The notes below the pieces were generated by a model. That model made no database searches and had not been told where the DNA came from. It saw only the letters and a program-made list of their open reading frames with translations. Made by a program: the position numbers and the translations under genes. This document shows positions 6,298-64,000 of a DNA stretch of 64,000 bases, in pieces (within the stretch, counting starts at the first letter, position 1; the number at the start of each line of letters is the position of its first letter). Source of the DNA: Escherichia phage vB_EcoM-fFiEco06; sequence record NC_054914.1. The stretch is one strand, 5' to 3'.

Positions 6298-7863
6298 ATG
6301 ACTATCAAAACTAAAGCTGAACTTTTGAACAAATGGAAGCCATTACTGGAAGGTGAAGGTTTACCGGAAATTGCTAATAGCAAACAAGCGATTATCGCTA
6401 AAATCTTTGAAAACCAGGAAAAAGATTTCCAGACAGCTCCGGAATATAAAGACGAAAAAATTGCTCAGGCATTCGGTTCTTTCTTAACAGAAGCTGAAAT
6501 CGGTGGTGACCACGGTTACAATGCTACCAACATCGCTGCAGGTCAGACTTCTGGAGCAGTAACTCAGATTGGCCCAGCTGTTATGGGTATGGTACGTCGT
6601 GCTATTCCTAACCTGATTGCTTTCGATATTTGTGGTGTTCAGCCAATGAACAGCCCGACTGGCCAGGTATTCGCACTGCGCGCAGTATATGGTAAAGACC
6701 CAATCGCTTCCGGTGCTAAAGAAGCATTCCACCCAATGTATGGTCCAGATGCAATGTTCTCTGGTCAGGGTGCTGCTAAGAAATTCGCTGCTTTGAAAGC
6801 AAGTGATACTCTTGAAGTCGGAACTATTTACACTCACTTCTTCCAGGAAACTGGTACAGTATATCTGCAAGCTACAGCAGCTAAACAAATTGATTCAGGC
6901 GCATCTGACGCAGACAAATTAGATGCTGAAATTAAGAAACAAATGGAAGCTGGTGTACTGGTAGAAATCGCTGAAGGTATGGCTACTTCTATCGCTGAAC
7001 TTCAAGAAGGTTTTAACGGTTCTACCGATAACCCGTGGAATGAAATGGGCTTCCGTATCGATAAACAAGTTATCGAAGCTAAATCTCGTCAGCTGAAAGC
7101 TGCTTACTCTATTGAATTAGCACAAGACCTCCGCGCTGTTCACGGTATGGATGCTGATGCTGAACTGTCTGGTATTCTGGCTACAGAAATTATGCTGGAA
7201 ATCAACCGTGAAGTTGTTGATTGGATTAACTACTCCGCTCAGGTTGGTAAATCTGGTATGACCCTGACTCCGGGTTCTAAAGCTGGTGTATTTGACTTCC
7301 AGGACCCAATCGATATTCGTGGTGCTCGCTGGGCAGGTGAATCCTTTAAAGCTCTGTTGTTCCAGATTGACAAAGAAGCAGTTGAAATTGCTCGTCAGAC
7401 TGGTCGCGGCGAAGGTAACTTCATTATCGCTTCCCGTAACGTAGTTAACGTTCTGGCTTCAGTTGATACCGGCATTTCTTATGCTGCACAAGGTCTGGCT
7501 ACTGGCTTTAACACTGATACTACCAAGTCAGTATTTGCTGGTGTTCTGGGTGGTAAATACCGTGTATATATCGACCAGTATGCTAAACAGGATTATTTCA
7601 CCGTAGGTTATAAAGGTCCGAACGAAATGGATGCTGGTATTTACTATGCTCCATATGTAGCTCTGACTCCGCTGCGTGGTTCTGATCCGAAGAACTTCCA
7701 ACCGGTAATGGGATTCAAAACTCGTTACGGTATCGGTATCAACCCATTTGCAGAATCCGCTGCTCAGGCTCCGGCTTCTCGCATCCAGAGCGGTATGCCT
7801 TCTATTCTGAATAGCCTTGGTAAAAACGCTTACTTTAGACGTGTATATGTTAAAGGTATCTAA
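6298..7863 (+). CDS. 23: major capsid protein gp23 (521 aa precursor)
   Basis: Sequence recognisable as T4 gp23 (MTIKTKAELLNKWKPLLEGEG...); length identical. Confidence 0.97.
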   Translation: MTIKTKAELLNKWKPLLEGEGLPEIANSKQAIIAKIFENQEKDFQTAPEYKDEKIAQAFGSFLTEAEIGGDHGYNATNIAAGQTSGAVTQIGPAVMGMVRRAIPNLIAFDICGVQPMNSPTGQVFALRAVYGKDPIASGAKEAFHPMYGPDAMFSGQGAAKKFAALKASDTLEVGTIYTHFFQETGTVYLQATAAKQIDSGASDADKLDAEIKKQMEAGVLVEIAEGMATSIAELQEGFNGSTDNPWNEMGFRIDKQVIEAKSRQLKAAYSIELAQDLRAVHGMDADAELSGILATEIMLEINREVVDWINYSAQVGKSGMTLTPGSKAGVFDFQDPIDIRGARWAGESFKALLFQIDKEAVEIARQTGRGEGNFIIASRNVVNVLASVDTGISYAAQGLATGFNTDTTKSVFAGVLGGKYRVYIDQYAKQDYFTVGYKGPNEMDAGIYYAPYVALTPLRGSDPKNFQPVMGFKTRYGIGINPFAESAAQAPASRIQSGMPSILNSLGKNAYFRRVYVKGI

Positions 7864-10855: not shown

Positions 10856-11986
10856 TTATGGATAGGTATAGATGATACCAGTTTCTAAAGCAGTTTTATG
10901 AATGATGTATCCATTGCGTGATTCTTGAACATCAACTTCTGGATAGTCTTTCATCATCTTCTGAAGAGTGTAACGATGCAGGTAGTATTTACTGTCTGGA
11001 TCTTCAGTTTTCCAATCTTTACCTTCTTCGGTCATTTTTTGGATTTCATCCATAACCCACCAACCGCACCAGATATAAGCTGAAGTACGATGTGGAAGAG
11101 GATGAACATAAGGCAATTCACCTTCTGGTTCTGGAGCAACTTTATCAGTTACCTGAACTTGACCTTCTGCTGTAATAGTTTTGCTATCGTAATCAGTTGC
11201 AGTAACGACAGCAGTAACTTCAATAGTTTGACTTCCAACAGATGAGGTATCGACAGTATATACGTTAGTTGACCCTTCTACAGGAGAAGAATCTTTCTTC
11301 CATGAGTAAGTAATTTGTGCTTCTTCTGGAGCACCCGTAACATTAGCCGTAAATGTAGCCGAAGCATCTTGCTGAACGTTAATAGAAGGAGGAGTCAATG
11401 TAACCTGTAGATTCATTGTTTTCTTATTAACAGTCAATGATACTTCATTAGAAGTAACTTCCTTTTCATTGTAATTTTCTGCAGTTACTTGCGCTACACA
11501 CTTAACTGTTTTAGCTCCAACTGTGGTAGGAGTATAGTTAAATGTAGTAGTAGTTTCTCCATCGACCAGAGAACCGTCAACATACCACTGATACGTAGCA
11601 GACGCTCCTGGTGGCTGTGAATCCAAGGCAGCAGTAAATTGAACTGGGGTTCCAATTACTCCGGCAGCAGGATTAGCAGGAGTTACGGCTAAGGTGGTCG
11701 TTTGTGTCTTATTTTGAACTGTGATAGTTGTAGTAGCTTCTGCTGTTTCAGCATCAGTATCTGGAACTGTATTTGTTGCAACTACTTTAATAGTCTTTTG
11801 TCCAGCAGGTCCTTTTAATACATAATCAAAAGTTGCTTCAGCTCCATCTTGTGGAGCATCATCTACAGTCCAAGCATATGTAATAGTTCCGCCTCCAGTT
11901 TCACCACTGGGTGTAGCAGTAAACTGCTTAGTTTCATCAATAACCCCTGTCGGTGTTTTAGGAGTTATATCAACTGTAAAAGTCAT
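10856..11986 (-). CDS. hoc: highly immunogenic outer capsid protein Hoc (Ig-like domain repeats)
   Basis: 376 aa, Thr/Val-rich repeated Ig-like segments; size and position match T4 Hoc. Confidence 0.85.
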   Translation of the reverse strand: MTFTVDITPKTPTGVIDETKQFTATPSGETGGGTITYAWTVDDAPQDGAEATFDYVLKGPAGQKTIKVVATNTVPDTDAETAEATTTITVQNKTQTTTLAVTPANPAAGVIGTPVQFTAALDSQPPGASATYQWYVDGSLVDGETTTTFNYTPTTVGAKTVKCVAQVTAENYNEKEVTSNEVSLTVNKKTMNLQVTLTPPSINVQQDASATFTANVTGAPEEAQITYSWKKDSSPVEGSTNVYTVDTSSVGSQTIEVTAVVTATDYDSKTITAEGQVQVTDKVAPEPEGELPYVHPLPHRTSAYIWCGWWVMDEIQKMTEEGKDWKTEDPDSKYYLHRYTLQKMMKDYPEVDVQESRNGYIIHKTALETGIIYTYP

Positions 11987-30523: not shown

Positions 30524-30716
30524 TACTTATAATTTCAACATCAGCCCAATGACCATAGCAAGGAAGACGAAATTCAACTGGCCAGTTAGGGTCCTTTTCT
30601 AATATAATAGACTTAACTTGTGGTTCTTCATGTTCATCAGTATACGGATTTTTATCTGTTACTTTATATGTGACCTTAATGTACTGAATTCCAAAAATCT
30701 TATTAATTATATTCAT
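30510..30716 (-). CDS. hypothetical early protein, 68 aa
   Basis: ORF in overlapping array. Confidence 0.45.
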   Translation of the reverse strand: MNIINKIFGIQYIKVTYKVTDKNPYTDEHEEPQVKSIILEKDPNWPVEFRLPCYGHWADVEIISIENV

Positions 30717-51981: not shown

Positions 51982-54900
51982 ATGGCCGAGATTAAAAGAA
52001 AGTTCAGAGCAGAAGATGGTCTGGACGCAGGTGGCGATAAAATAATCAACGTAGCTTTAGCTGATCGTACCGTAGGAACTGACGGTGTTAACGTTGATTA
52101 CTTAATTCAAGAAAACACAGTTCAGCAATATGACCCAACTCGTGGATATTTAAAAGATTTTGTAATCATTTATAATAATCGTTTTTGGGCAGCAACGGAT
52201 AATATTCCAAAACCTGCTGGAAATTTTAATAGAATTCGTTGGAAAGCATTACGTACTGATGCCGTATATACAACCGTATCATCTGGACCATATCAATTAA
52301 AATCCGGAGAAGCAATTTCAGTAGATACATCAGTTGGCAATGACATTGAGTTTACTTTACCACCTTCTCCGCTTGATGGAGAAACCGTAATAATTCAAGA
52401 TATCGGTGGAAAACCTGGCATAAATCAGGTTAAAATAAATTCTTCAAATCAGAGTATTGTCAATTTTAGAGGTGAACAGGTACGTTCAGTTTTAATGACT
52501 CATCCAAAGTCACAGATGGTATTCATTTTTAATAATCGTTTGTGGCAAATGTATATTGCTGATTATAGCAGAGAAGCTGCGATTGTTACTCCATCGACTG
52601 CATATCAAGCACAATCTAATGATTTTATCGTACGTAGATTTACTTCTGCTGCACCAATTAATGTTAAACTTCCGAGATTTGCTAATCATGGCGATATTAT
52701 TAATTTCGTTGATTTAGATAAACTGAATCCACTTTATCATACAATTGTTACTACATACGATGAAACGACTTCAGTACAAGAAGTTGGAACTCATTCCATT
52801 GAAGGCCGTACATCGATTGACGGTTTCTTGATGTTTGACGATAATGAGAAATTGTGGAGATTGTTTGACGGGGATAGTAAAGCACGTTTACGCATTATAA
52901 CAACTAATTCAAATATTCGTCCAAATGAAGAAGTCATGGTATTTGGCGCGAATAATGGAACAACCCAAACAATTGAACTTCAGCTTCCGACTGATATTTC
53001 TGTTGGTGATACTGTTAAAATTTCCATGAATTACATGAGAAAAGGACAAACAGTTAAAATCAAAGCTGCTGGTGAAGATAAAATTGCTTCTTCAGTTCAA
53101 TTGCTGCAATTCCCAAAACGTTCAGAATATCCGCCTGAAGCTGAATGGGTAACAGTTCAAGAATTAGTTTTTAACGGTGAAACTAATTATGTACCAGTTT
53201 TGCAACTTGCTTATATAGAAGATTCTGATGGAAAATACTGGGTTGTACAGCAAAACGTTCCAACAGTTGAAAGAGTCGATTCTTTAAATAATTCTACTAG
53301 AGCAAGATTAGGCGTAATTGCTTTAGCTACACAAGCTCAAGCAAATGCTGATTTAGAAAATTCTCCGCAAAAAGAATTGGCAATTACTCCAGAAACGTTA
53401 GCTAATCGTACTGCTACAGAAACTCGCAGAGGTATTGCAAGAATAGCAACTACTGCTCAAGTGAATCAGAACACCACATTCTCTTTTGCAGATGACCTTA
53501 TCATCACTCCTAAAAAGCTGAATGAAAGAACTGCTACAGAAACTCGCAGAGGTGTCGCTGAAATTGCTACGCAGCAGGAAACTAATACAGGTACTGATGA
53601 TACTACAATCATTACTCCTAAAAAGCTTCAAGCTCGCCAAGGTTCTGAATCATTATCTGGTATTGTAACTTTTGTATCTACCGCAGGAGCTACTCCAGCT
53701 TCTAGTCGTGAATTAAATGGTACGAATGTTTATAATAAAAACACTAATAATTTAGTTGTTTCACCTAAAGCTTTGGATCAGTATAAAGCTACTCCAACGC
53801 AACAAGGCGCAGTAATTTTAGCAGTTGAAAGTGAAGTAATTGCTGGACAAAGCCAAGAAGGATGGGCAAATGCGGTTGTAACGCCAGAAACGTTACATAA
53901 AAAGACATCAACTGATGGAAGAATTGGTTTAATTGAAATTGCTACGCAAAGTGAAGTTAATACAGGAACTGACTATACTCGTGCAGTCACTCCTAAAACT
54001 TTAAATGACCGTAGAGCAACTGAAAGTTTAAGTGGTATAGCTGAAATTGCTACGCAAGTTGAATTCGACGCAGGCGTCGACGATACTCGTATCTCTACAC
54101 CATTAAAAATTAAAACCAGATTTAATAGTACTGATCGTACTTCTGTTGTTGCTCTATCTGGATTAGTTGAATCAGGAACTCTCTGGGACCATTATACCCT
54201 TAATATTCTTGAAGCAAATGAGACACAGCGTGGTACACTTCGTGTAGCTACACAAGTTGAAGCTGCTGCAGGAACATTGGATAATGTTCTAATAACTCCT
54301 AAAAAGCTTTTAGGTACTAAATCTACTGAAGCGCAGGAAGGCGTTATTAAAGTTGCAACTCGGTCTGAAACTGTAGCTGGAACGTCAGCAAATACTGCTG
54401 TATCTCCAAAAAATTTAAAATGGATTGTGCAGAGTGAACCTACTTGGGCAGCGACTACTGCGATAAGAGGTTTTGTTAAAACTTCGTCTGGTTCAATTAC
54501 ATTCGTTGGTAATGATACAGCTGGTTCAACACAGCCATTAGAATCATATGAGAAAAATGGTTATGCAGTATCACCATATGAATTAAATCGCGTATTAGCA
54601 AATTATTTGCCGTTAAAAGCAAAAGCCGTAGATAGTAATTTATTAGATGGTCTAGATTCGCTCCAGTTCATTCGTAGGGACATTGCACAAACAGTTAATG
54701 GTTCACTAACCTTAACCCAACAAACGAATCTGAGTGCCCCTCTTGTATCATCTAGTACTGCTACATTCGGTGGATCAGTTTCAGCAAATAGTACATTAAC
54801 TATTTCTAATACTGGAACGGCAACTCGTCTGATTTTTGAGAAAGGACCTCAAACTGGAACAAACCCGGCTCAAACGATGACAGTCAGAGTGTGGGGAAAT

Positions 54901-55851
54901 CAATTTAGCGGGGAATCAGACACAACACGTTCTACCGTATTTGAAGTTAGTGATGAAACGTCTAGTCATTTTTATTCTCAGCGTAATAAAGCTGGAAATA
55001 TAACATTTAATATCAACGGTACAGTAACACCGATAAATGTTAATGCTTCAGGAACATTGAATGCAAATGGTGTAGCAACATTTGGTAATTCAGTCACTGC
55101 AACTGGTGAAATTATTTCTCGAAGCGCAAATGCTTTCCGTGCTATTAACGGAAATTATGGTTTCATTGTTCGCAATGATGGGTCAGTAACGAATTTTATG
55201 CTTACTGCATCGGGTGATCAAACTGGCGGATTTAATGGATTGCGTCCTTTAGCTATTAATAATGCATCTGGCCAAGTAACGATTGGTGAAAGCTTAATCA
55301 TTGCAAAAGGTGCTACTATAAGTTCGGGTGGTTTGACTGTTAACTCGAGAATTCGTTCTCAGGGTACTAAAACCTCTGATTTATATACCCGTGCGCCAAC
55401 ATCTGATACAGTAGGATTCTGGTCAATCGATATTAATGATTCAGCCACTTATAACCAGTTCCCGGGTTATTTTAAAATGGTTGAAAAAACTAATGAAGTG
55501 ACTGGACTTCCATACTTAGAACGTGGTGAAGAAGTTAAATCTCCTGGTACATTGACTCAGTTTGGTAACACACTTGATTCACTTTACCAAGATTGGATTA
55601 CTTATCCAACGACCCCAGAAGCACGTACCACTCGCTGGACACGTACATGGCAGAAAACCAAAAACTCTTGGTCAAGTTTTGTTCAGGTATTTGACGGAGG
55701 TAACCCTCCTCAACCTTCAGATATAGGAGCGATCCCATCTGATAATGGAATAATAGGTAATCTTACTATTCGCGATTTCTTGCGAATTGGTAATGTTCGC
55801 ATTATTCCTGACCCAGTGAATAAAACTGTTAAATTTGAGTGGATTGAATAA
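51982..55851 (+). CDS. 34: long tail fibre proximal subunit gp34 (1289 aa)
   Basis: Length identical to T4 gp34; internal tandem repeats. Confidence 0.9.
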   Translation: MAEIKRKFRAEDGLDAGGDKIINVALADRTVGTDGVNVDYLIQENTVQQYDPTRGYLKDFVIIYNNRFWAATDNIPKPAGNFNRIRWKALRTDAVYTTVSSGPYQLKSGEAISVDTSVGNDIEFTLPPSPLDGETVIIQDIGGKPGINQVKINSSNQSIVNFRGEQVRSVLMTHPKSQMVFIFNNRLWQMYIADYSREAAIVTPSTAYQAQSNDFIVRRFTSAAPINVKLPRFANHGDIINFVDLDKLNPLYHTIVTTYDETTSVQEVGTHSIEGRTSIDGFLMFDDNEKLWRLFDGDSKARLRIITTNSNIRPNEEVMVFGANNGTTQTIELQLPTDISVGDTVKISMNYMRKGQTVKIKAAGEDKIASSVQLLQFPKRSEYPPEAEWVTVQELVFNGETNYVPVLQLAYIEDSDGKYWVVQQNVPTVERVDSLNNSTRARLGVIALATQAQANADLENSPQKELAITPETLANRTATETRRGIARIATTAQVNQNTTFSFADDLIITPKKLNERTATETRRGVAEIATQQETNTGTDDTTIITPKKLQARQGSESLSGIVTFVSTAGATPASSRELNGTNVYNKNTNNLVVSPKALDQYKATPTQQGAVILAVESEVIAGQSQEGWANAVVTPETLHKKTSTDGRIGLIEIATQSEVNTGTDYTRAVTPKTLNDRRATESLSGIAEIATQVEFDAGVDDTRISTPLKIKTRFNSTDRTSVVALSGLVESGTLWDHYTLNILEANETQRGTLRVATQVEAAAGTLDNVLITPKKLLGTKSTEAQEGVIKVATRSETVAGTSANTAVSPKNLKWIVQSEPTWAATTAIRGFVKTSSGSITFVGNDTAGSTQPLESYEKNGYAVSPYELNRVLANYLPLKAKAVDSNLLDGLDSLQFIRRDIAQTVNGSLTLTQQTNLSAPLVSSSTATFGGSVSANSTLTISNTGTATRLIFEKGPQTGTNPAQTMTVRVWGNQFSGESDTTRSTVFEVSDETSSHFYSQRNKAGNITFNINGTVTPINVNASGTLNANGVATFGNSVTATGEIISRSANAFRAINGNYGFIVRNDGSVTNFMLTASGDQTGGFNGLRPLAINNASGQVTIGESLIIAKGATISSGGLTVNSRIRSQGTKTSDLYTRAPTSDTVGFWSIDINDSATYNQFPGYFKMVEKTNEVTGLPYLERGEEVKSPGTLTQFGNTLDSLYQDWITYPTTPEARTTRWTRTWQKTKNSWSSFVQVFDGGNPPQPSDIGAIPSDNGIIGNLTIRDFLRIGNVRIIPDPVNKTVKFEWIE
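53299..54427 (+). repeat. tandem ~40-residue repeats within gp34 (motif ...TE.RRG.A.IAT..E.N.GTDDT..ITP.KL...), with DNA-level repeats such as ACTGCTACAGAAACTCGCAGAGGT
   Basis: Repeated peptide motif seen at least six times; near-identical 24-nt DNA segment twice. Confidence 0.7.
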
Positions 55852-55859
55852 GAGGTATT

Positions 55860-56975
55860 ATGGAAAAATTTATGGCAGAGTTTGGACAAGGATATGTCCA
55901 AACGCCATTTTTATCGGAAAGCAATTCAGTAAGATATAAAATAAGCATAGCGGGTTCTTGCCCGCTTTCTACTGCGGGGCCATATGTTAAATTTCAGGAT
56001 AATCCCGTTGGAAATCAAACATTTAGTGCAGGTCTTCATTTAAGAGTTTTTGACCCTTCTACAGGAGCATTAGTTGATAGTAAGTCATATGCTTTTTCTA
56101 CTTCAAATAATACTACATCAGCTGCTTTTGTTAGTTTCATGAATTCTTTGTCAAACAATAGACTTGTTGCTATATTAACTAGCGGAAAGGTTAATTTTCC
56201 TCCTGAAGTGGTATCTTGGTTAAGGGGAGCAGGAACTTCAGTTTTTCCATCAGATTCAGTATTGTCAAGATTTGACGTATCATATGCTGCTTTTTATACT
56301 TCTTCTAAAAGAGCTATTGCATTAGAGCATGTTAAACTAAGTAATAGAAAAAGCACAGATGATTATCAAACTATTTTAGATGTTGTATTTGATAGTTTAG
56401 AAGACGTCGGAGCGACAGGATTTCCAAAAAGAACTTATGAAAGTGTCGAGCAATTCATGTCAGCAGTTGGTGGAACTAATAACGAAATTGCGCGATTGCC
56501 AACTTCAGCTGCTATAAGTAAACTTTCTGACTATAATTTAATTCCTGGTGATGTTCTTTATCTTAAAGCACAGTTATATGCTGATGCTGATTTACTTGAT
56601 CTTGGAACTACAAACATATCCATTCGTTTTTATGATGCATCAAATGGATATATTTCCTCGACCCAAGCTGAGTTTACTGGGCAAGCTGGGTCTTGGGAAT
56701 TAAAAGAAGACTATGTAGTTGTTCCAGAAAACGCCGTAGGATTTACGATATATGCGCAAAGAACTGCTCAAGCAGGTCAAGGCGGCATGAGAAATTTAAG
56801 TTTTTCTGAAGTATCAAGAAATGGCGGCATTTCAAAACCTGCCGAATTTGGCGTCAACGGTATTCGCGTTAATTATGTCTGTGAATCGGCTTCACCTCCA
56901 GATATAATGGTACTTCCTACACAAGCCTCTTCTAAAACTGGCAAAGTGTTTGGACAGGAATTTAGAGAAGTTTAA
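55860..56975 (+). CDS. 35: long tail fibre hinge protein gp35
   Basis: 371 aa; position between 34 and 36. Confidence 0.85.
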   Translation: MEKFMAEFGQGYVQTPFLSESNSVRYKISIAGSCPLSTAGPYVKFQDNPVGNQTFSAGLHLRVFDPSTGALVDSKSYAFSTSNNTTSAAFVSFMNSLSNNRLVAILTSGKVNFPPEVVSWLRGAGTSVFPSDSVLSRFDVSYAAFYTSSKRAIALEHVKLSNRKSTDDYQTILDVVFDSLEDVGATGFPKRTYESVEQFMSAVGGTNNEIARLPTSAAISKLSDYNLIPGDVLYLKAQLYADADLLDLGTTNISIRFYDASNGYISSTQAEFTGQAGSWELKEDYVVVPENAVGFTIYAQRTAQAGQGGMRNLSFSEVSRNGGISKPAEFGVNGIRVNYVCESASPPDIMVLPTQASSKTGKVFGQEFREV

Positions 56976-56980
56976 ACTGA

Positions 56981-56998
56981 GGGAGCCTTCGGGTTCCC
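56981..56998 (+). terminator. GGGAGCC-UUCG-GGUUCCC hairpin + U-tract after gene 35
   Basis: 7-bp stem (one G-U pair), UUCG loop, followed by TTTTTC. Confidence 0.7.
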
Positions 56999-57006
56999 TT
57001 TTTCTT

Positions 57007-57014
57007 TATAAATA
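57007..57014 (+). promoter_or_regulatory. late promoter TATAAATA for gene 36
   Basis: Exact match 24 nt upstream of ATG 57038. Confidence 0.7.
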
Positions 57015-57037
57015 ATATTAAAATAAAGGGGCATATA

Positions 57038-57688
57038 ATGGCTGATTTAAAAGTAGGTTCAACTGTGGGTGGATCTGTCATTTGGCATCAAGGAAATTTT
57101 CCATTGAATTCAGCCGGTGACGATGTACTCTACAAATCATTTAAAATATATTCAGAATATAATAAACCGCAGGCAGCTGATAACGATTTCGTTTCTAAAG
57201 CTAATGGTGGTACTTACGCCGGTCCAATTACTATTAATTACGGGGTAAATAGTTATCTTCAATTAAGTAATAATGAAACCCCTATCCGAATTCGTTCTGG
57301 TGGCGGCACTGGTAATACTCTTGTAGTTGGTGGCTCTTCTGGCGGTATTAGTTTTAGACCAGCAGGTAGTGAAATCACTACTGGACAAATTACTATTACG
57401 CCAGAAGGTTTGACAACATTTACCAAAGCTGTAACGGCTCCATCTGTAACTGTTACATCTACTCCTTCCGCAGCATCTGATGTTACTCGCAAAGATTATG
57501 TTGATGGAGCAATAAATACTGTTACAGCAAATGCAAACTCTAGGGTATTACGCTCTGGAGACACTATGACAGGAAATTTAACTGCGCCAAACCTTTTTTC
57601 ACAGAATCCTGCATCTCAACCTTCACACGTTCCACGATTTGACCAAATCGTAATTAAGGATTCTGTTCAAGATTTCGGCTATTATTAA
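57038..57688 (+). CDS. 36: long tail fibre distal connector gp36
   Basis: 216 aa; position. Confidence 0.85.
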
Positions 57689-57696
57689 GAGGACTT

Positions 57697-60681
57697 ATGG
57701 CTACTTTAAAACAAATACAATTTAAAAGAAGCAAAACTGCAGGTCAACGTCCTGCTGCTTCAGTATTAGCCGAAGGTGAATTGGCTATAAACTTAAAAGA
57801 TAAAACAATTTTCACAAAAGATGACTCAGGTAGTGTTATAGAATTAGGTTTAAAATATGGAGGAACAATTGATGGTTCTTTAACTGTTAATGGAAATATA
57901 ATTGGAAATTTAACAGGTAACGCTGCAACTGCAACGAAATTAAAAACAGCACGAAAAATTAATGGTATATCCTTTGATGGGTCAAAAGATATCACGCTAA
58001 CTCCATCTGACATAAATGTCAATAGCACAACGTTTATAAAAAATAATGGCGAATTACCTGTTGATGCTAATTTAGATACGTATGGGCCTGTTGAAGAATG
58101 TCTTGGAGTTTGGTCGAAAGCAACTTCAACCAACGCTCAACCAGCAAATAAATTTCCAGAAGAAAATGCTGTAGGTGTGCTAGAAGTATTTGTGGCCGGT
58201 CAATTTGCTGGTACTCAGAGATATACAACTAGATACGGAAATGTTTATATTCGTTCCTTGACTGCTACATGGAACGGAGTAAATGGTCCGTGGAGTGTGT
58301 GGCGAAATATTCAATCTGGTACTCGTCCACTGTCAACAACAATTGATCTTAATGATCTAGGAGGCGCTGAACACTTTGGTTTGTGGCGAAATAGTTCAAA
58401 TTCCATTGCTACCTTTGACAGAAATTTCCCAGAAGAAGGATCGTCCGCTCAAGGACTTTTAGAAGTATATGAAGGTGGAAACTATTCTCGCACACAGAGA
58501 TATACGACCAGATTTGGTGTTGTTTATACTCGTTGTCTTACTGCTGCGTGGGATGCTTCTGCGCCTAAATGGGGACCTTGGCAACAAGTCGGTAATGTCA
58601 CACCGGCGACTTTCTATGACGGAGATCTGAATGATTTTAAAACTCCTGGGTTATATAATATTTTAGGCACTGATGCCGTTATTAACTGTCCTACCGGTGA
58701 AGGTTTGCCGACTGTTATTGTTGGTTTGCTGGAAGTTAAACAGCGTGCTTCTGGCGGTGCTATTTTCCAAAAATTTACTACTGCCGGAACGGGTGCAACT
58801 ACTCGCGATCGTATTTTTGAGCGTGCATATACTGGTGGTGTGTGGGGTGCATGGAACGAAGTATATACATCTTATTCTCTTCCAATTACTTTGGGTATGG
58901 GTGGTATTAAAGCTCAATTAGCGGAGTTAGATTGGCAAACCTTTGATTTTGTTCCTGGTAGTATGTTTAGCGTTCCTTTGAACAAAATAAAGAACATGCC
59001 AGCAAATATGGATTGGGGGACGATTGACGGAAACCTGGTTATGTTTTCCGTTGGTCCTAGCGAACACACTAGCACAGGGCGTACTGTTCAGGTTTGGCGC
59101 GGTACTGTATCCCAGACAAACTACCGTTATTTTGTCGTTCGTGTGTTCGGTAATTCTGGAAATAGAACTTGCACAGTCCGCCGTGTTGTTCTTGAAGATG
59201 GTCGCCACACATGGACAGCTCAACAAGATTTTAATGGTGCTGTTAACTTCGGTGCTCCTACCAATTTTAACTCTACTGTTAACCTTAATAACACTACCAC
59301 ATTTAAAACAGAAGTTAAATTCCGCTCATCTAATGCATTCCGTATGTATGGCGGAAAATTTGGTACAATTTTCCGTAATGATGGAGAGAGTCTTTATATT
59401 CTTTCCACCGACGAAAATGATCAAGATGGAAACTTTAATACAAATAGACCTTTCCGTTATGAATTAAGAACTGGTGATGTTACTTTGGGTGGTACTAGTG
59501 GTGCTAACGTTTTAAAATTAAAACGCGATTCTCTCACCGCATTTTTTGGTGGTGATATTAATATAAAAGGCTTGATGACTTTTGATGCCGGACGTTTAGG
59601 ATCACGAGATTATTTTAAATTTAACCATTGGGGTGATAGTAATAATGCGCGCGATAACATTATTCAGTTAGAAGACAGCAAAGGCGTTCATTTTTCCACT
59701 GAACGTACTTTAGCGACTGGTGCAATTAAAACTAAATTCTTTGGTGAAGTTGAATCCGAAGGTAGATTGATTATTAAACGTCCGGGTGATTCTATTGTAT
59801 TATCAACAACTGCTGGTAATGCTTTGCATATTCGTGGTGACGTAGACGGGAGTGGTAACTGGTATATTGGTAAGGGTGGTGCTGATAATTCGCTAGCATT
59901 TTATAGCTATGCTACTCAGGCGGCAGTACATATCACAAACAATGGTGAGATTTCGCTAAATCCACAAAATATCGCAATGGTTAACGTTAACCGCGATCGT
60001 GTACACATTAACGGTTCTGGATGGATTGCTAGACAACCGGGTGATTGGGGCAACCAATGGCGAGTAGAAGCTCCATTATTCGTCGATCATGGTTATGTTT
60101 CACAGGATTGTTATTATCCAATTATTAAAGGAAGAAGTGTAATCACCAATCAAGGGTTTGTAACTGCCGTCGATCTTGGTATTCGTCGTGTCCCTAACAA
60201 TTGGGGGCAAGCAATTATTCGTGTTGGATCTGCAGAGGCATCGCCAGCGGCTGGACACCCTAACGCGGTATTTGAATTTCATTACGACGGTACTTTCTAT
60301 TCTCCTGGTAATGGTAACTTTAACGATGTGTATATTCGTTCCGATGGTCGTCTTAAGATTAATAAAAAAGAGCTAGAAAACGGAGCACTTGAAAAAGTAT
60401 GTCGACTGAAAGTTTATATTTACGATAAAGTTAAGTCTATTAAAGACCGTAGTGTTATTAAACGTGAAGTTGGTATTATTGCTCAGGACCTTGAAAAGGA
60501 ATTACCGGAAGCTGTATCTAAAGTTGAAGTTGATGGATCTGATGTTCTGACAATTTCTAACTCTGCTGTGAATGCTCTTTTAATTAAGGCTATTCAGGAA
60601 ATGAGTGAAGAAATTAAAGAATTGAAAACGCCTCTCTTTACTAAAATTGCTCGCAAAATTAGTAAATATTTTAAATTCTAA
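57697..60681 (+). CDS. 37: long tail fibre distal subunit gp37 (994 aa), T2-type with C-terminal intramolecular chaperone-like domain
   Basis: Position/size; N-terminus conserved with T4 gp37; C-terminal SDGRLK motif. Confidence 0.9.
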
Positions 60682-60687
60682 CAACAA

Positions 60688-60702
60688 GGGGGAAATGCCC
60701 CC
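60688..60702 (+). terminator. GGGGG-AAAUG-CCCCC hairpin + UUU after gene 37
   Basis: 5-bp G/C stem read directly. Confidence 0.55.
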
Positions 60703-60716
60703 TTTGGAGTATAATT

Positions 60717-61517
60717 ATGGCAGTAGTTGGTGTTCCTGGTTGGATTGGAAGTTCAGCCGCAAATGAAACAGGACAGCGCTGGATGAGTCAAGCGGCTGGT
60801 CAATTAAGATTGGGTGTTCCTTGCTGGATGAGTCAATTTGCAGGTCGCTCACGAGAAATTATTCACACCCTTGGAGCGGACCATAACTTCAATGGTCAAT
60901 GGTTCCGAGATAGATGTTTTGAGGCAGGTAGTGCACCTATAGTGTTTAATATTACCGGAAATTTGGTATCATATTCTAGAGACGTTCCTTTATTCTTCAT
61001 GTATGGAGATACACCTAATGAATATGTTCAGTTGAATATTGGTGGCGGCGTCCATATGTGGGGTAGAGGTGGACAAGGTGGATGGACCCATTCCGGCGGA
61101 GATGGTAATGGTCAACAAGGTGGTCATTGTATTCAAAATGACATCGGTGGACGATTAAGAATTAATAACGGTGGAGTAATTTGTGGTGGAGGTGGAGGTG
61201 GAGGTGGTATCGCTTATCGTCCTCACTCTGGTGCAAATTGGCAAGATATTGGTGGTGGTGGAGGAAGACCATTTGGCCCAGGAGGAGGCGGAGGTTATTC
61301 CGGCGGCGCAGCTTCTTATGATGGCCCAGGAGGTGGTTATAATTATGGTAATGCTCACTCTGGCCAGGGTGGTGATGCTGGCGCAAATGGACAAAATGCC
61401 TGGTATGATGGCGGTAAAGTTCTAAAAGTTGGAGCTGGTGGCGCTGCCGGATATGCTGTTATAGGATCAGCTCCAACATGGCAAAATGTTGGAGTAATAT
61501 ATGGTCCAAGGGTATAA
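60717..61517 (+). CDS. 38: gp38 receptor-binding adhesin (T2/T6 type, glycine-rich motifs), 266 aa
   Basis: Conserved N-terminal domain followed by Gly-rich motifs and variable segments; between 37 and t. Confidence 0.8.
61035..61451 (+). repeat. glycine-rich motif region of gp38 (GGG.., GGGGGGGG, GGGGG, GGGGG runs separated by variable segments)
   Basis: Poly-Gly runs in translation; GGT/GGA/GGC codon runs in DNA. Confidence 0.8.
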
Positions 61518-61548
61518 TTTTGAATAAATATCCTTAAAAGGAGGGTCT

Positions 61549-62205
61549 ATGGCAGCACCTAGAATATCATTTTCGCCCTCTGATATTCTATTTGGTGTTC
61601 TAGATCGCTTGTTCAAAGATAACGCTACCGGGAAAGTTCTTGCTTCTCGGGTAGCTGTCGTAATTCTTTTGTTTATGATGGCGATTGTTTGGTATAGGGG
61701 AGATAGTTTCTTTGAGTACTATAAGCAATCAAAGTATGAAACATACAGTGAAATTATTGAAAAGGAAAGAAATGCACGCTTTGAATCTGTCGCCCTGGAA
61801 CAACTCCAGATAGTTCACATATCATCTGAGGCAGACTTTAGTGCGGTGTATTCTTTCCGCCCTAAAAACTTAAACTATTTTGTTGATATTATAGCATATG
61901 AAGGAAAATTACCTTCAACAATAAGTGAAAAATCACTTGGAGGATATCCTGTTGATAAAACTATGGATGAATATACAGTTCATTTAAATGGACGTCATTA
62001 TTATTCCGACTCAAAATTTGCTTTTTTACCAACTAAAAAGCCTACTCCCGAAATAAACTACATGTACAGTTGTCCATATTTTAATTTGGATAATATCTAT
62101 GCTGGAACGATAACCATGTACTGGTATAGAAATGATCATATAAGTAATGACCGCCTTGAATCAATATGTGCTCAGGCGGCCAGAATATTAGGAAGGGCTA
62201 AATAA
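61549..62205 (+). CDS. t: holin T (218 aa)
   Basis: Sequence recognisable as T4 T holin (MAAPRISFSPSDILFGVLDRLFKDN...; single TMD, large periplasmic domain). Confidence 0.93.
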   Translation: MAAPRISFSPSDILFGVLDRLFKDNATGKVLASRVAVVILLFMMAIVWYRGDSFFEYYKQSKYETYSEIIEKERNARFESVALEQLQIVHISSEADFSAVYSFRPKNLNYFVDIIAYEGKLPSTISEKSLGGYPVDKTMDEYTVHLNGRHYYSDSKFAFLPTKKPTPEINYMYSCPYFNLDNIYAGTITMYWYRNDHISNDRLESICAQAARILGRAK

Positions 62206-62478
62206 TTATTTGTTCGTATACATTTCTAGATATCGATATACACCCTCAAAACCCTCGTTGAATTCATCGATGAGGGTTTTCTTATCTTCTTGAGTTAATT
62301 CAGAAACAATTTTACGAAATGAATTCTGATTTAACTTTCTACCTTCATGCGTTACTCCAATCTCATTAAGAAATGCAATAAAATTAGCACGATTCTCAAC
62401 AATATCTTCTCTGGAAAATTTAATCAAAATAGATGCAACAGTAATAATTTCACGAACTGTATCAATGTTTTTATTCAT
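62206..62478 (-). CDS. asiA: anti-sigma70 factor AsiA (90 aa)
   Basis: Sequence recognisable as T4 AsiA (MNKNIDTVREIITVASILIKFSRED...). Confidence 0.93.
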   Translation of the reverse strand: MNKNIDTVREIITVASILIKFSREDIVENRANFIAFLNEIGVTHEGRKLNQNSFRKIVSELTQEDKKTLIDEFNEGFEGVYRYLEMYTNK

Positions 62479-62490
62479 TAACTATACCAC

Positions 62491-62643
62491 TCAATTAGTT
62501 GACTTTGTTATAATATCATCAGACGCTTGATTTGTAAACTGGTCTGTGTTATTTTCTTCAAAAATTTTTTCTACGAATTCCTTGAACGACTCGCGTTCCT
62601 GAGCTACATTATGCTCGATTACCTTTTCAAGATTATGACTCAT
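62491..62643 (-). CDS. candidate small ORF, 50 aa (MSHNLEKVIEHNVAQERESFKEF...), ATGA-coupled to upstream arn-like gene; not in ORF track
   Basis: Hand translation; start overlaps upstream stop. Confidence 0.3.
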   Translation of the reverse strand: MSHNLEKVIEHNVAQERESFKEFVEKIFEENNTDQFTNQASDDIITKSTN

Positions 62644-62918
62644 TCGAAATAATCTTCAATTTCGTAATCATAGACATAAATCATTATAGTTTTTAATACA
62701 TCATCAATACTTTTTCCTGGAGCTGGAATTACGTAAAAATATCCTGCTTTTGAGAGGTCTTTATAAGTTCCAATCAAGAAATCATTATTCTCAAGATGTA
62801 ACTCTTCAACTAATTCATTGACAATTGAATGGTATAGGTTTGGTAGAAACTTATATAGCTTTTCTAGAATATCAATTTTGATTGTGTATTGAACCACGGA
62901 CTGAGAATCAATAATCAT
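62640..62918 (-). CDS. arn: acidic 92-aa protein, probable Arn (anti-restriction, McrBC inhibitor)
   Basis: Size equals T4 Arn, acidic composition, position after asiA. Confidence 0.5.
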   Translation of the reverse strand: MIIDSQSVVQYTIKIDILEKLYKFLPNLYHSIVNELVEELHLENNDFLIGTYKDLSKAGYFYVIPAPGKSIDDVLKTIMIYVYDYEIEDYFE

Positions 62919-62995
62919 AGACCTTCCCCTTATGTTTCTGTTTGCGATTAGATTCTTTAAACGCTTTCTTCTTATCCTTATGGACAGAAGCTTTA

Positions 62996-63220
62996 TTAAA
63001 ATTGTGTTTTGCGACTAAATTGTTCATAGTGCTGAATTACCTCTCTCAAACACTTGCATGTGAATGAAAACTTTTTAGCTACACCACATTCAAATATATG
63101 TTCTCTTAAATCACGTGTGTCAGTATATCCCATCTCAACAATAAAATGTCTTATTAGATTTTTATCTTTATCATTGAGAGAATTAAAATAATCGGATTTT
63201 GAATTAATTTCCCTGGCCAA
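62996..63220 (-). CDS. hypothetical protein, 74 aa
   Basis: ORF in early array. Confidence 0.4.
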   Translation of the reverse strand: MAREINSKSDYFNSLNDKDKNLIRHFIVEMGYTDTRDLREHIFECGVAKKFSFTCKCLREVIQHYEQFSRKTQF

Positions 63221-63500
63221 ATTGAATCACCTTCAGTTGACGTTTTAGTTCTTTTATCATTTCTTCGTTCATCGCAATATAAAGATCGCGTAAAGCAGGT
63301 TTTAACATTCCATTTACTGGAGAACTAAATGGACATACATAATCTTTTCCTACGAGCTTTTTGGTGAATTCCATATCACAGAACTGAAATGCCGGTTCAT
63401 TGGCATAAATTCCCCAATTAGTTGACATCATTTTATTGGCATATTCCAACGCCTGGATTTGATTCTTAATTCCATCAATTTGAAACTTTTTAATATTCAT
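63204..63500 (-). CDS. hypothetical protein, 98 aa
   Basis: ORF in early array. Confidence 0.4.
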   Translation of the reverse strand: MNIKKFQIDGIKNQIQALEYANKMMSTNWGIYANEPAFQFCDMEFTKKLVGKDYVCPFSSPVNGMLKPALRDLYIAMNEEMIKELKRQLKVIQFGQGN

Positions 63501-63961
63501 TAGTAAAGGTCCTCAGAGTAAAGTTCTTTTTCACTACCACCGCGTTCAATACGTACTTGTCCGGCGTAAGTTGCAATAATCATTGCTTCTTCACGTGTCC
63601 AGTAATTGCTATACTGATCAATAAACCCTTGGTCATCATCACAAACTTGCTGAGTAACTAATTGGGGTTTAACTGCATCTAAAACTTCTGCCATATCTTT
63701 AGAATAATGACGAGCACCTGGAATAACAAGAGTTCGTCCATCTTTTAATTTAAAACGGTTGGCGGCACAAACAATTCGTCGTTGATACTTTTGGTTTTCA
63801 TCCCAGTATGCGGTCTGCCAACAGATTTCAGGAACTTCTTTTAGAATATCTTCTTCTGTGCATTTATAACCATGCGCTTTAAATTTTTCAACAAGACTTT
63901 CTGGAGTTTCACGACATAAAGGAACATTCAGCATTTTTAAACGATTAATAAATGGGTTCAT
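63500..63961 (-). CDS. hypothetical protein, 153 aa
   Basis: ORF with start overlap to the downstream gene. Confidence 0.45.
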
Positions 63962-64000
63962 TTAAACCATCCTTTAATACGCTGCCACAAAGTTTTCTGT

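Follow-up and report, generated by a model that had tools for sequence, protein, structure and literature searches.

The glycine-rich product of gene 38 in Escherichia phage vB_EcoM-fFiEco06 is an adhesin of the T2/T6/S16 type, whose main glycine runs keep their length throughout the family. By analogy with its relatives, gp38 would be carried on the virion at the fibre tip, where it would bind an outer-membrane receptor, predicted here to be OmpA. We envision that a gp38 monomer caps the trimeric gp37 tip of the long tail fibre of this Tequatrovirus. Its N-terminal three-helix domain, with one tryptophan per helix, would plug into the gp37 tip, and a conserved beta-helix would bear two long excursions. 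In these excursions, glycine-rich motifs (GRMs) would pack as polyglycine-II (PGII) helices to form a three-layer sandwich, and hypervariable segments (HVSs) would form the distal loops that bind the receptor. The GGN-rich DNA would then exist since the fold needs glycine. As a side effect, it would provide short conserved or repeated sites for homologous and microhomology-mediated exchange, so that loops can be swapped, duplicated and trimmed, and selection on the fold would hold the run lengths constant. Taken as a whole (an fFiEco06 adhesin capping gp37, with a PGII fold, a type 1 OmpA specificity and GGN DNA as exchange sites), we regard this explanation as highly probable.

The DNA analysed is a stretch of 64,000 nucleotides of record NC_054914.1, hereafter the window. 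Gene 38 and its surroundings are laid out as follows:

57007-57014, plus strand: T4-type late promoter motif TATAAATA, found by pattern search
57038-57688, plus strand: gene 36, which precedes gene 37
57697-60681, plus strand: gene 37, the distal long-tail-fibre subunit carrying gp38, 994 aa (Pfam, match to S16 gp37, fHoEco02 annotation)
60717-61517, plus strand: gene 38, the gp38 tail-fibre adhesin, an ATG-initiated ORF of 266 aa plus stop (Pfam)
61549-62205, plus strand: gene t, a holin and the downstream neighbour (Pfam Phage_holin_T, 1.9e-117; annotation)

An exact-sequence look-up showed that the encoded protein is identical to AUV61110.1 / YP_010069270.1 of vB_EcoM-fFiEco06. It served as the reference gp38 (fFiEco06, NC_054914.1:156717-157517, 801 nt) in the alignments of Lutz et al. 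2025 (PMC12032242), and gene 38 of the window is therefore a named, published gene in a well-studied family. The coordinates of that reference lie exactly 96,000 above those used here, as they should if the window is bases 96001-160000 of the genome. Its ribosome-binding site is the GGAG at 60706-60709, eight bases upstream. The gene order 36-37-38-t, fixed by gene t, is canonical, and the motif at 57007, just ahead of gene 36, is the nearest plus-strand copy upstream of the 36-37-38 block; gene 38 would be transcribed from this late promoter upstream of gene 36. In the whole window the motif occurs 18 times against 7.95 expected, mostly on the plus strand and ahead of structural genes. Between the stop codon of gene 37 and the Shine-Dalgarno sequence of gene 38 there is a G+C-rich hairpin (AAGGGGG-AAATG-CCCCCTT, 60686-60704). 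The terminator scan, which matched only the reverse complement of this hairpin, called none on the plus strand between the two genes. Open reading frames in other frames over the GGN region (e.g. 61183-61425) were set aside as by-products of repeat composition.

The fibre subunit itself is of the expected kind. A C-terminal intramolecular chaperone domain, Peptidase_S74, covers aa 882-940 of gp37 (60340-60516; Pfam), and it is in this part that gp37 aligns with the S16 gp37 chain 6f45_A (1.4e-4). Judged from its sequence, such a gp37 fits a T2/S16-type fibre, the tip of which would be capped by gp38, with predicted cleavage of the chaperone domain.

Sequence families and fold agree on the identity of gp38, which the first-pass annotation had already read as a receptor-recognising protein of the T2/T6 type. 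Pfam PF05268 (GP38) matches aa 47-266 (8.1e-69, 232.2 bits against a cutoff of 25) and PF21721 (Gp38_N) matches aa 1-42 (1.5e-19, 70.1 bits, same cutoff). [quoted passage not shown] An AF2 model computed with 86 homologues reached a mean pLDDT of 87.6 and a pTM of 0.80; only residues 1-17 are poorly defined, as would be expected of a domain that folds against gp37, which is absent from the model. When the model was compared to the PDB with Foldseek, 9v85 and 6f45_D were the only hits (E of 8e-23 or better, TM-scores normalised to the target of 0.87 and 0.82), all other matches having E > 4. As modelled, gp38 has three domains: a helical attachment domain, a beta-helix and a polyglycine-II sandwich. 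S16 gp38 (6F45) and the PP01 gp38 RBD (9V85) share this three-domain fold, with the same PGII sandwich and eight-glycine central helix; the window protein is 43% identical to the former and 62-63% identical to PP01 gp38, and the distal loops differ.

Along the gene, these domains can be placed as follows:

60717-60854, plus strand: N-terminal attachment domain, aa 1-46, with three W-containing pseudo-repeats (W9, W22, W37; Gp38_N)
60855-61040, plus strand: N-terminal part of the conserved beta-helix domain, aa 47-108 (homologue identity, AF2)
61041-61049, plus strand: GGT GGC GGC tract encoding G109-G111, a turn between two beta strands just before GRM1 (alignment, DSSP)
61062-61451, plus strand: specificity region, about aa 116-245, in which glycine-rich motifs alternate with hypervariable loops (invariant residues, Foldseek)
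61185-61208, plus strand: eight-glycine run, aa 157-164, encoded by (GGT GGA)x3 GGT GGT (Tandem Repeats Finder, shuffle test, family register)
61209-61250, plus strand: HVS2, or loop B, aa 165-178 (comparison with RB32 and type 1 adhesins)
61251-61295, plus strand: GRM3 block, aa 179-193 (GGGGGRPF essentially invariant; site of the pSe_SNUABM_01 crossover)

The attachment domain is thought to dock the gp38 monomer onto the trimeric gp37 tip. Among gp38 homologues W9 is invariant and W22 nearly so, and the S16 structure shows three conserved tryptophans at helix apices (PMC6851490). The DNA of this domain carries direct repeats between 60729 and 60846, one pair being GCTGGATGAGTCAA (60778, 60823) and the other GGTGTTCCT (60729, 60813). 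The recurring (G)VP-W / WMSQ motifs are encoded by these repeats, which reflect the pseudo-threefold design of a monomer binding the gp37 trimer. Downstream, aa 47-108 are 93-100% identical across adhesins of different receptors and are modelled as beta strands with pLDDT above 90. Glycine makes up 27% of gp38 overall and 37% of aa 107-266; the protein contains 15 runs of at least two glycines, including GGGGGGGG (aa 157-164) and GGGGG at 179-183 and 189-193. Invariant residues in the specificity region are G116, R117, G118, G119, G121, G135, G136, G160-162, G182-183, P185, G187, G190 and G205. Across alignments of 86 and 118 sequences, glycine-rich motifs and hypervariable segments alternate in the C-terminal half, so the architecture first proposed from the single sequence, a conserved N-terminal part followed by glycine runs with variable segments between them, is that of the family.

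What the runs do is best understood from the solved structures. In S16 gp38, ten glycine-rich motifs form polyglycine-II helices packed in a three-layer sandwich (PMC6851490). Its central helix 3, 151-GGGGGGGG-158, lies in a network of main-chain hydrogen bonds that is saturated; binding is proposed to take place through the distal HVS loops, the receptor-binding site(s) being called 'yet unknown' in the same paper (PMC6851490). The PP01 gp38 structure has the same PGII lattice, with loops A to E; PP01 gp38 binds OmpC of E. coli O157 (PMC12892980). By analogy, the window run at aa 157-164 would be the counterpart of S16 helix 3. If the window runs are structural PGII helices, then their length should be constrained.

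Which receptor the loops recognise can be predicted from close relatives. The nearest is RB32 gp38 (ABI95068.1), with 98.3% nucleotide identity and 263 of 266 residues in common; its GRMs and HVSs are arranged alike, and its eight-glycine run uses the same (GGT GGA) codon pattern. Of the three differences, one falls in the attachment domain (A15V), one in HVS2/loop B (N174K) and one in HVS4/loop E (Y230H), so that HVS2 holds one of the two differences in the specificity domain. RB32 requires OmpA and is sensitive to LPS composition, and RB5 phages that acquired the RB32 HVS block by recombination gained RB32 specificity (both Trojet et al. 2011, PMC3157838). Two further phages, FL08 and AV119, depend on OmpA in deletion-mutant assays and have been named 'type 1' (Lutz et al. 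2025, PMC12032242). Over aa 107-266 they are 94% identical to the window protein; they differ from it by another type of attachment domain (52-57%), by IGA instead of GGGV before GRM1 and by seven loop substitutions. The predicted OmpA contacts of type 1 adhesins are kept:

R168 in the window, R165 in FL08
H170-A173 in the window, H167-A170 in FL08
R184 in the window, R181 in FL08
D220 in the window, D217 in FL08
R265 in the window, R262 in FL08

HVS2 contains the RxHSGA residues implicated in OmpA contact by type 1 adhesins, with P169 of the window replacing the type 1 valine in the predicted contact region. This R-x-H-S-G-A signature and the GGDAG aspartate are among the HVS sequences of the type 1 group. 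On these sequence grounds the fFiEco06 allele is assigned to the group of RB32, FL08, AV119 and KIT03 (OmpA 'type 1'). Because it lies three residues from RB32 and its specificity domain is 94% identical to that of FL08/AV119, its receptor is very probably OmpA, with sensitivity to the LPS core. That the variable segments specify the receptor, as the first reading of the sequence had assumed, agrees with published chimera and mutagenesis work.

KIT03 gp38 has a specificity domain 100% identical to that of the window and an attachment domain only 52% identical over aa 1-46; no receptor for KIT03 was found in the literature passages that matched. The gp38 proteins of T6 (Tsx) and M1 (OmpA) have attachment domains 96-100% identical to that of the window and a nearly identical beta-helix, but their specificity domains are only 52-56% identical, with unrelated HVS sequences. 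Modules thus appear shuffled among gp38 proteins, with values of 100% in the specificity domain and 52% in the attachment domain for KIT03, and of 52% and 100%, respectively, for M1.

Some doubt about OmpA is left by N174K and Y230H, because one HVS substitution can switch the receptor of a gp38: in RB68, Q206L changes it from OmpF to OmpW (bioRxiv 10.64898/2026.04.02.716166). The same adhesin fold could therefore recognise something else, if the changes in loops B and E relative to RB32 retarget the protein either to LPS alone or to a different porin. In PP01, loops B and E are important for adsorption (PMC12892980), and a search for adsorption or receptor data on fFiEco06 found none in the searchable literature. 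Yet FL08 and AV119 still use OmpA despite P169V, D202V, G203A, N208Q, A223G and Y230S. Moreover, the specificity domain with N174 and Y230 recurs unchanged (100%) in KIT03 and nearly so in many phages, so this version is a common functional allele of the group. We consider retargeting away from OmpA unlikely. The published host range of fFiEco06, 9 of 200 clinical E. coli strains (17 of 200 for its sibling fHoEco02; PMC5981032), is narrower than the 'broad' behaviour of type 1, which factors other than adsorption can explain.

The GGN runs had been called slippage-prone in the first-pass annotation, and in its strongest form this idea makes them contingency loci, in which frequent replication slippage would change run length and generate host-range variants at a high rate. 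Several observations point that way. The DNA quoted in support, ggtggaggtggaggtggaggtggt, lies at 61185-61208, and Tandem Repeats Finder detects (GGTGGA)x3.8 at 61185-61207 with 100% matches, at a score of 46, below the default threshold of 50. When synonymous glycine codons were shuffled within the gene, a perfect repeat this long arose in 2.4% of cases (p about 0.02), and in 0.8% for period 6. Codon patterns in the eight-glycine run also vary among relatives despite the same protein: (GGT GGA)n in the window, RB32 and FT, and a period-9 pattern in pSe_SNUABM_01, PBM-1 and the relative L015. Against shuffles, this periodicity gave p of 0.005-0.02 in some lineages (L015 0.005, the ZN18 gene 0.008) and 0.12-0.97 in others; for pSe_SNUABM_01 and PBM-1, period 9 is read from the codon pattern. 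Finally, close relatives differ by one-codon GGN indels at aa 109-111.

Nevertheless, the runs themselves do not change length. Across 118 homologues the eight-glycine and GGGGGRPF blocks stay in register with no gain or loss by indel; apparent runs of 6, 7 or 9 glycines come from terminal substitutions (C-G versus A-S, trailing G versus I), and the eight- and five-glycine lengths are likewise fixed within the 90% identity cluster. Synonymous turnover in run codons was not faster than at other C-terminal four-fold sites in five relatives (Fisher p 0.08 to 1). The repeat itself comprises fewer than four units, and one-codon variation is found at aa 109-111 only. The runs would moreover be buried PGII helices in a saturated hydrogen-bond lattice, whose length variants should misfold. 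Contingency loci of this kind therefore seem very improbable. 'Slippage-prone' overstates the matter, because surviving genes keep their run lengths; one-codon indels are confined to the small GGN tract upstream of GRM1. The codon periodicity hints at occasional slippage, after which selection would restore the length, without being compelling; since the lineages are not independent, we take it as no more than suggestive. Independently of run length, the window is separated from PBM-1 or FT by a synonymous divergence at four-fold sites of about 8% over the N-terminal third, which rises to roughly 25-35% in the C-terminal part, the proteins being nearly identical.

The small tract upstream of GRM1 deserves attention because of fHoEco02. 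The fFiEco06 and fHoEco02 genomes are 99.96% identical, and their tail sheath, gp34, gp37 and adhesin differ by 1-2 residues (PMC5981032). The window is >99.9% identical to fHoEco02 (MG781191), with 42 differing positions over roughly 58.7 kb and a last 20 kb that is essentially identical. Over 54717-64000 (9.3 kb), the four differences all change a protein and none is silent:

58051: gp37 E119 (K in fHoEco02)
59428: gp37 G578 (R in fHoEco02)
61041-61049: extra gp38 glycine
61777: holin t R77 (C in fHoEco02)

The gp38 gene of fHoEco02 (AUV61382.1) is 100% identical in DNA but for this one indel, the loss of a single GGN codon that gives GGV instead of the window GGGV at aa 109-112. The shorter state is derived, because RB32, ESh30, pSe_SNUABM_01, PBM-1 and FT have three residues at G109-G111. 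Among the 118 homologues and in the 90% cluster, one-codon indels always fall at NI-[GHIS]-G-(G)-[VA]-H, just before GRM1, and the same polymorphism occurs on other backgrounds, as IGA versus IGGA in a15/FL08/AV119 and as H-GV versus HGGV in T2/PP01-like adhesins. In the AF2 model, DSSP places G109-G111 in a turn between strands 104-108 and 113-115, not in a receptor loop. It is conceivable, if doubtful, that this tract is a recurrent one-codon indel hotspot at a beta-helix turn and that the single glycine contributes to the host-range difference between the siblings. If so, GGN slippage outside the receptor loops would tune how the adhesin presents its loops. This glycine is among very few tail-fibre differences between siblings of different host range, the other candidates being gp37 E119K and G578R and the 1-2 residue differences in the tail sheath and gp34.

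Elsewhere, 34 of the 38 differences from fHoEco02 in window positions 1-49409 fall within 240 bp of the hoc gene (head outer capsid, minus strand; 11409-11648), as though a third phage had donated a short patch by recombination. The remaining ones are substitutions at 6896 (gp23), 10032 (rnlB) and 21125 (gp48) and a 1-bp indel at 30639.

In T4-type phages, deletions and duplications arise at short direct repeats. The possibility raised at the outset, that the repeat DNA could mediate recombination, is supported by natural gp38 genes. In pSe_SNUABM_01, informative sites follow PBM-1 over gene nt 136-540 and the window over 570-778; since the parent switches between nt 540 and 570, the crossover lies inside GRM3. 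FT carries a window-like patch over gene nt 453-516 that includes the eight-glycine run. A different outcome is seen in Yersinia phage vB_YepM_ZN18 (MN716856.1 / NC_054945.1; L017 862-978), isolated on Yersinia pseudotuberculosis. Its T6-like gp38 of 277 aa contains HVS2 (YYSPFSQMRLTFGGGGG) twice, through a perfect tandem duplication of 51 bp. At the borders of the duplication is a 15-nt GGN repeat, TGGCGGTGGCGGCGG, that lies at the end of a nine-glycine run and again within a five-glycine run. The 11 other records listed, out of 179 further ones among 181 that match, do not have this duplication, their two-piece alignments spanning 230 bases, 51 fewer than the query; like the fHoEco02 indel, it is present in one deposited assembly. 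The window has a shorter analogue of this bracket, as the direct repeat GTGGTGGAGG (10 nt, in frame), with copies at 61183 and 61255, flanks its HVS2. These crossover and duplication results fit the published view of GRMs as recombination sites (Tetart 1998, as cited in Trojet 2011, PMC3157838). In addition, an engineered exchange replaced only the part of gp38 from HVS2 onward (2026 preprint, bioRxiv 10.64898/2026.04.02.716166).

Two deposited gene 38 sequences carry frame-disrupting changes. Escherichia phage EPIMAM01 (PQ493298.1; L010 3201-4128) has a 127-bp tandem duplication that starts in the eight-glycine run, is out of frame and leaves a truncated annotated CDS; the cause may be an artefact of assembly, or the variant may be defective. 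Gene 38 of phage RB33 (KM607001.1; L005 3201-4000) has a 1-bp deletion near GRM1 (AGAGGTGG), with a frameshift and an annotated CDS of 441 nt. A sequencing error is probable in this deposit, because RB33 g38 is identical to RB32 according to Trojet 2011 (PMC3157838).

That gp38 could instead be an assembly chaperone of the T4 type, not retained on the virion, has a negligible chance of being right: only the gene name and the position after gene 37 speak for it, but BLASTP finds no similarity to T4 gp38 (NP_049864.1; best E = 0.84 over 20 residues, far from the full-length alignment that the first-pass annotation had named as its own refutation), the adhesin families and structures match strongly, and gp37 has an intramolecular chaperone domain of its own. 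T4 gp38, a tail-fibre assembly chaperone of 183 aa that is not a virion component, shares with the window protein its name and its slot between gene 37 and gene t, and is unrelated to it in sequence.

Published work already covers the architecture of gp38, its PGII fold, what the HVS loops do and recombination at GRMs, and current understanding is unchanged by our analysis. To this picture, ZN18 adds a clear case in nature of an HVS duplicated between GGN runs. Since most T-even-like phages owe their host range to gp38 adhesins, knowing the allele allows the receptor to be predicted, which is of use in phage therapy and engineering. For fFiEco06, a phage from a therapeutic collection, the practical result is a predicted receptor, OmpA, with sensitivity to LPS.
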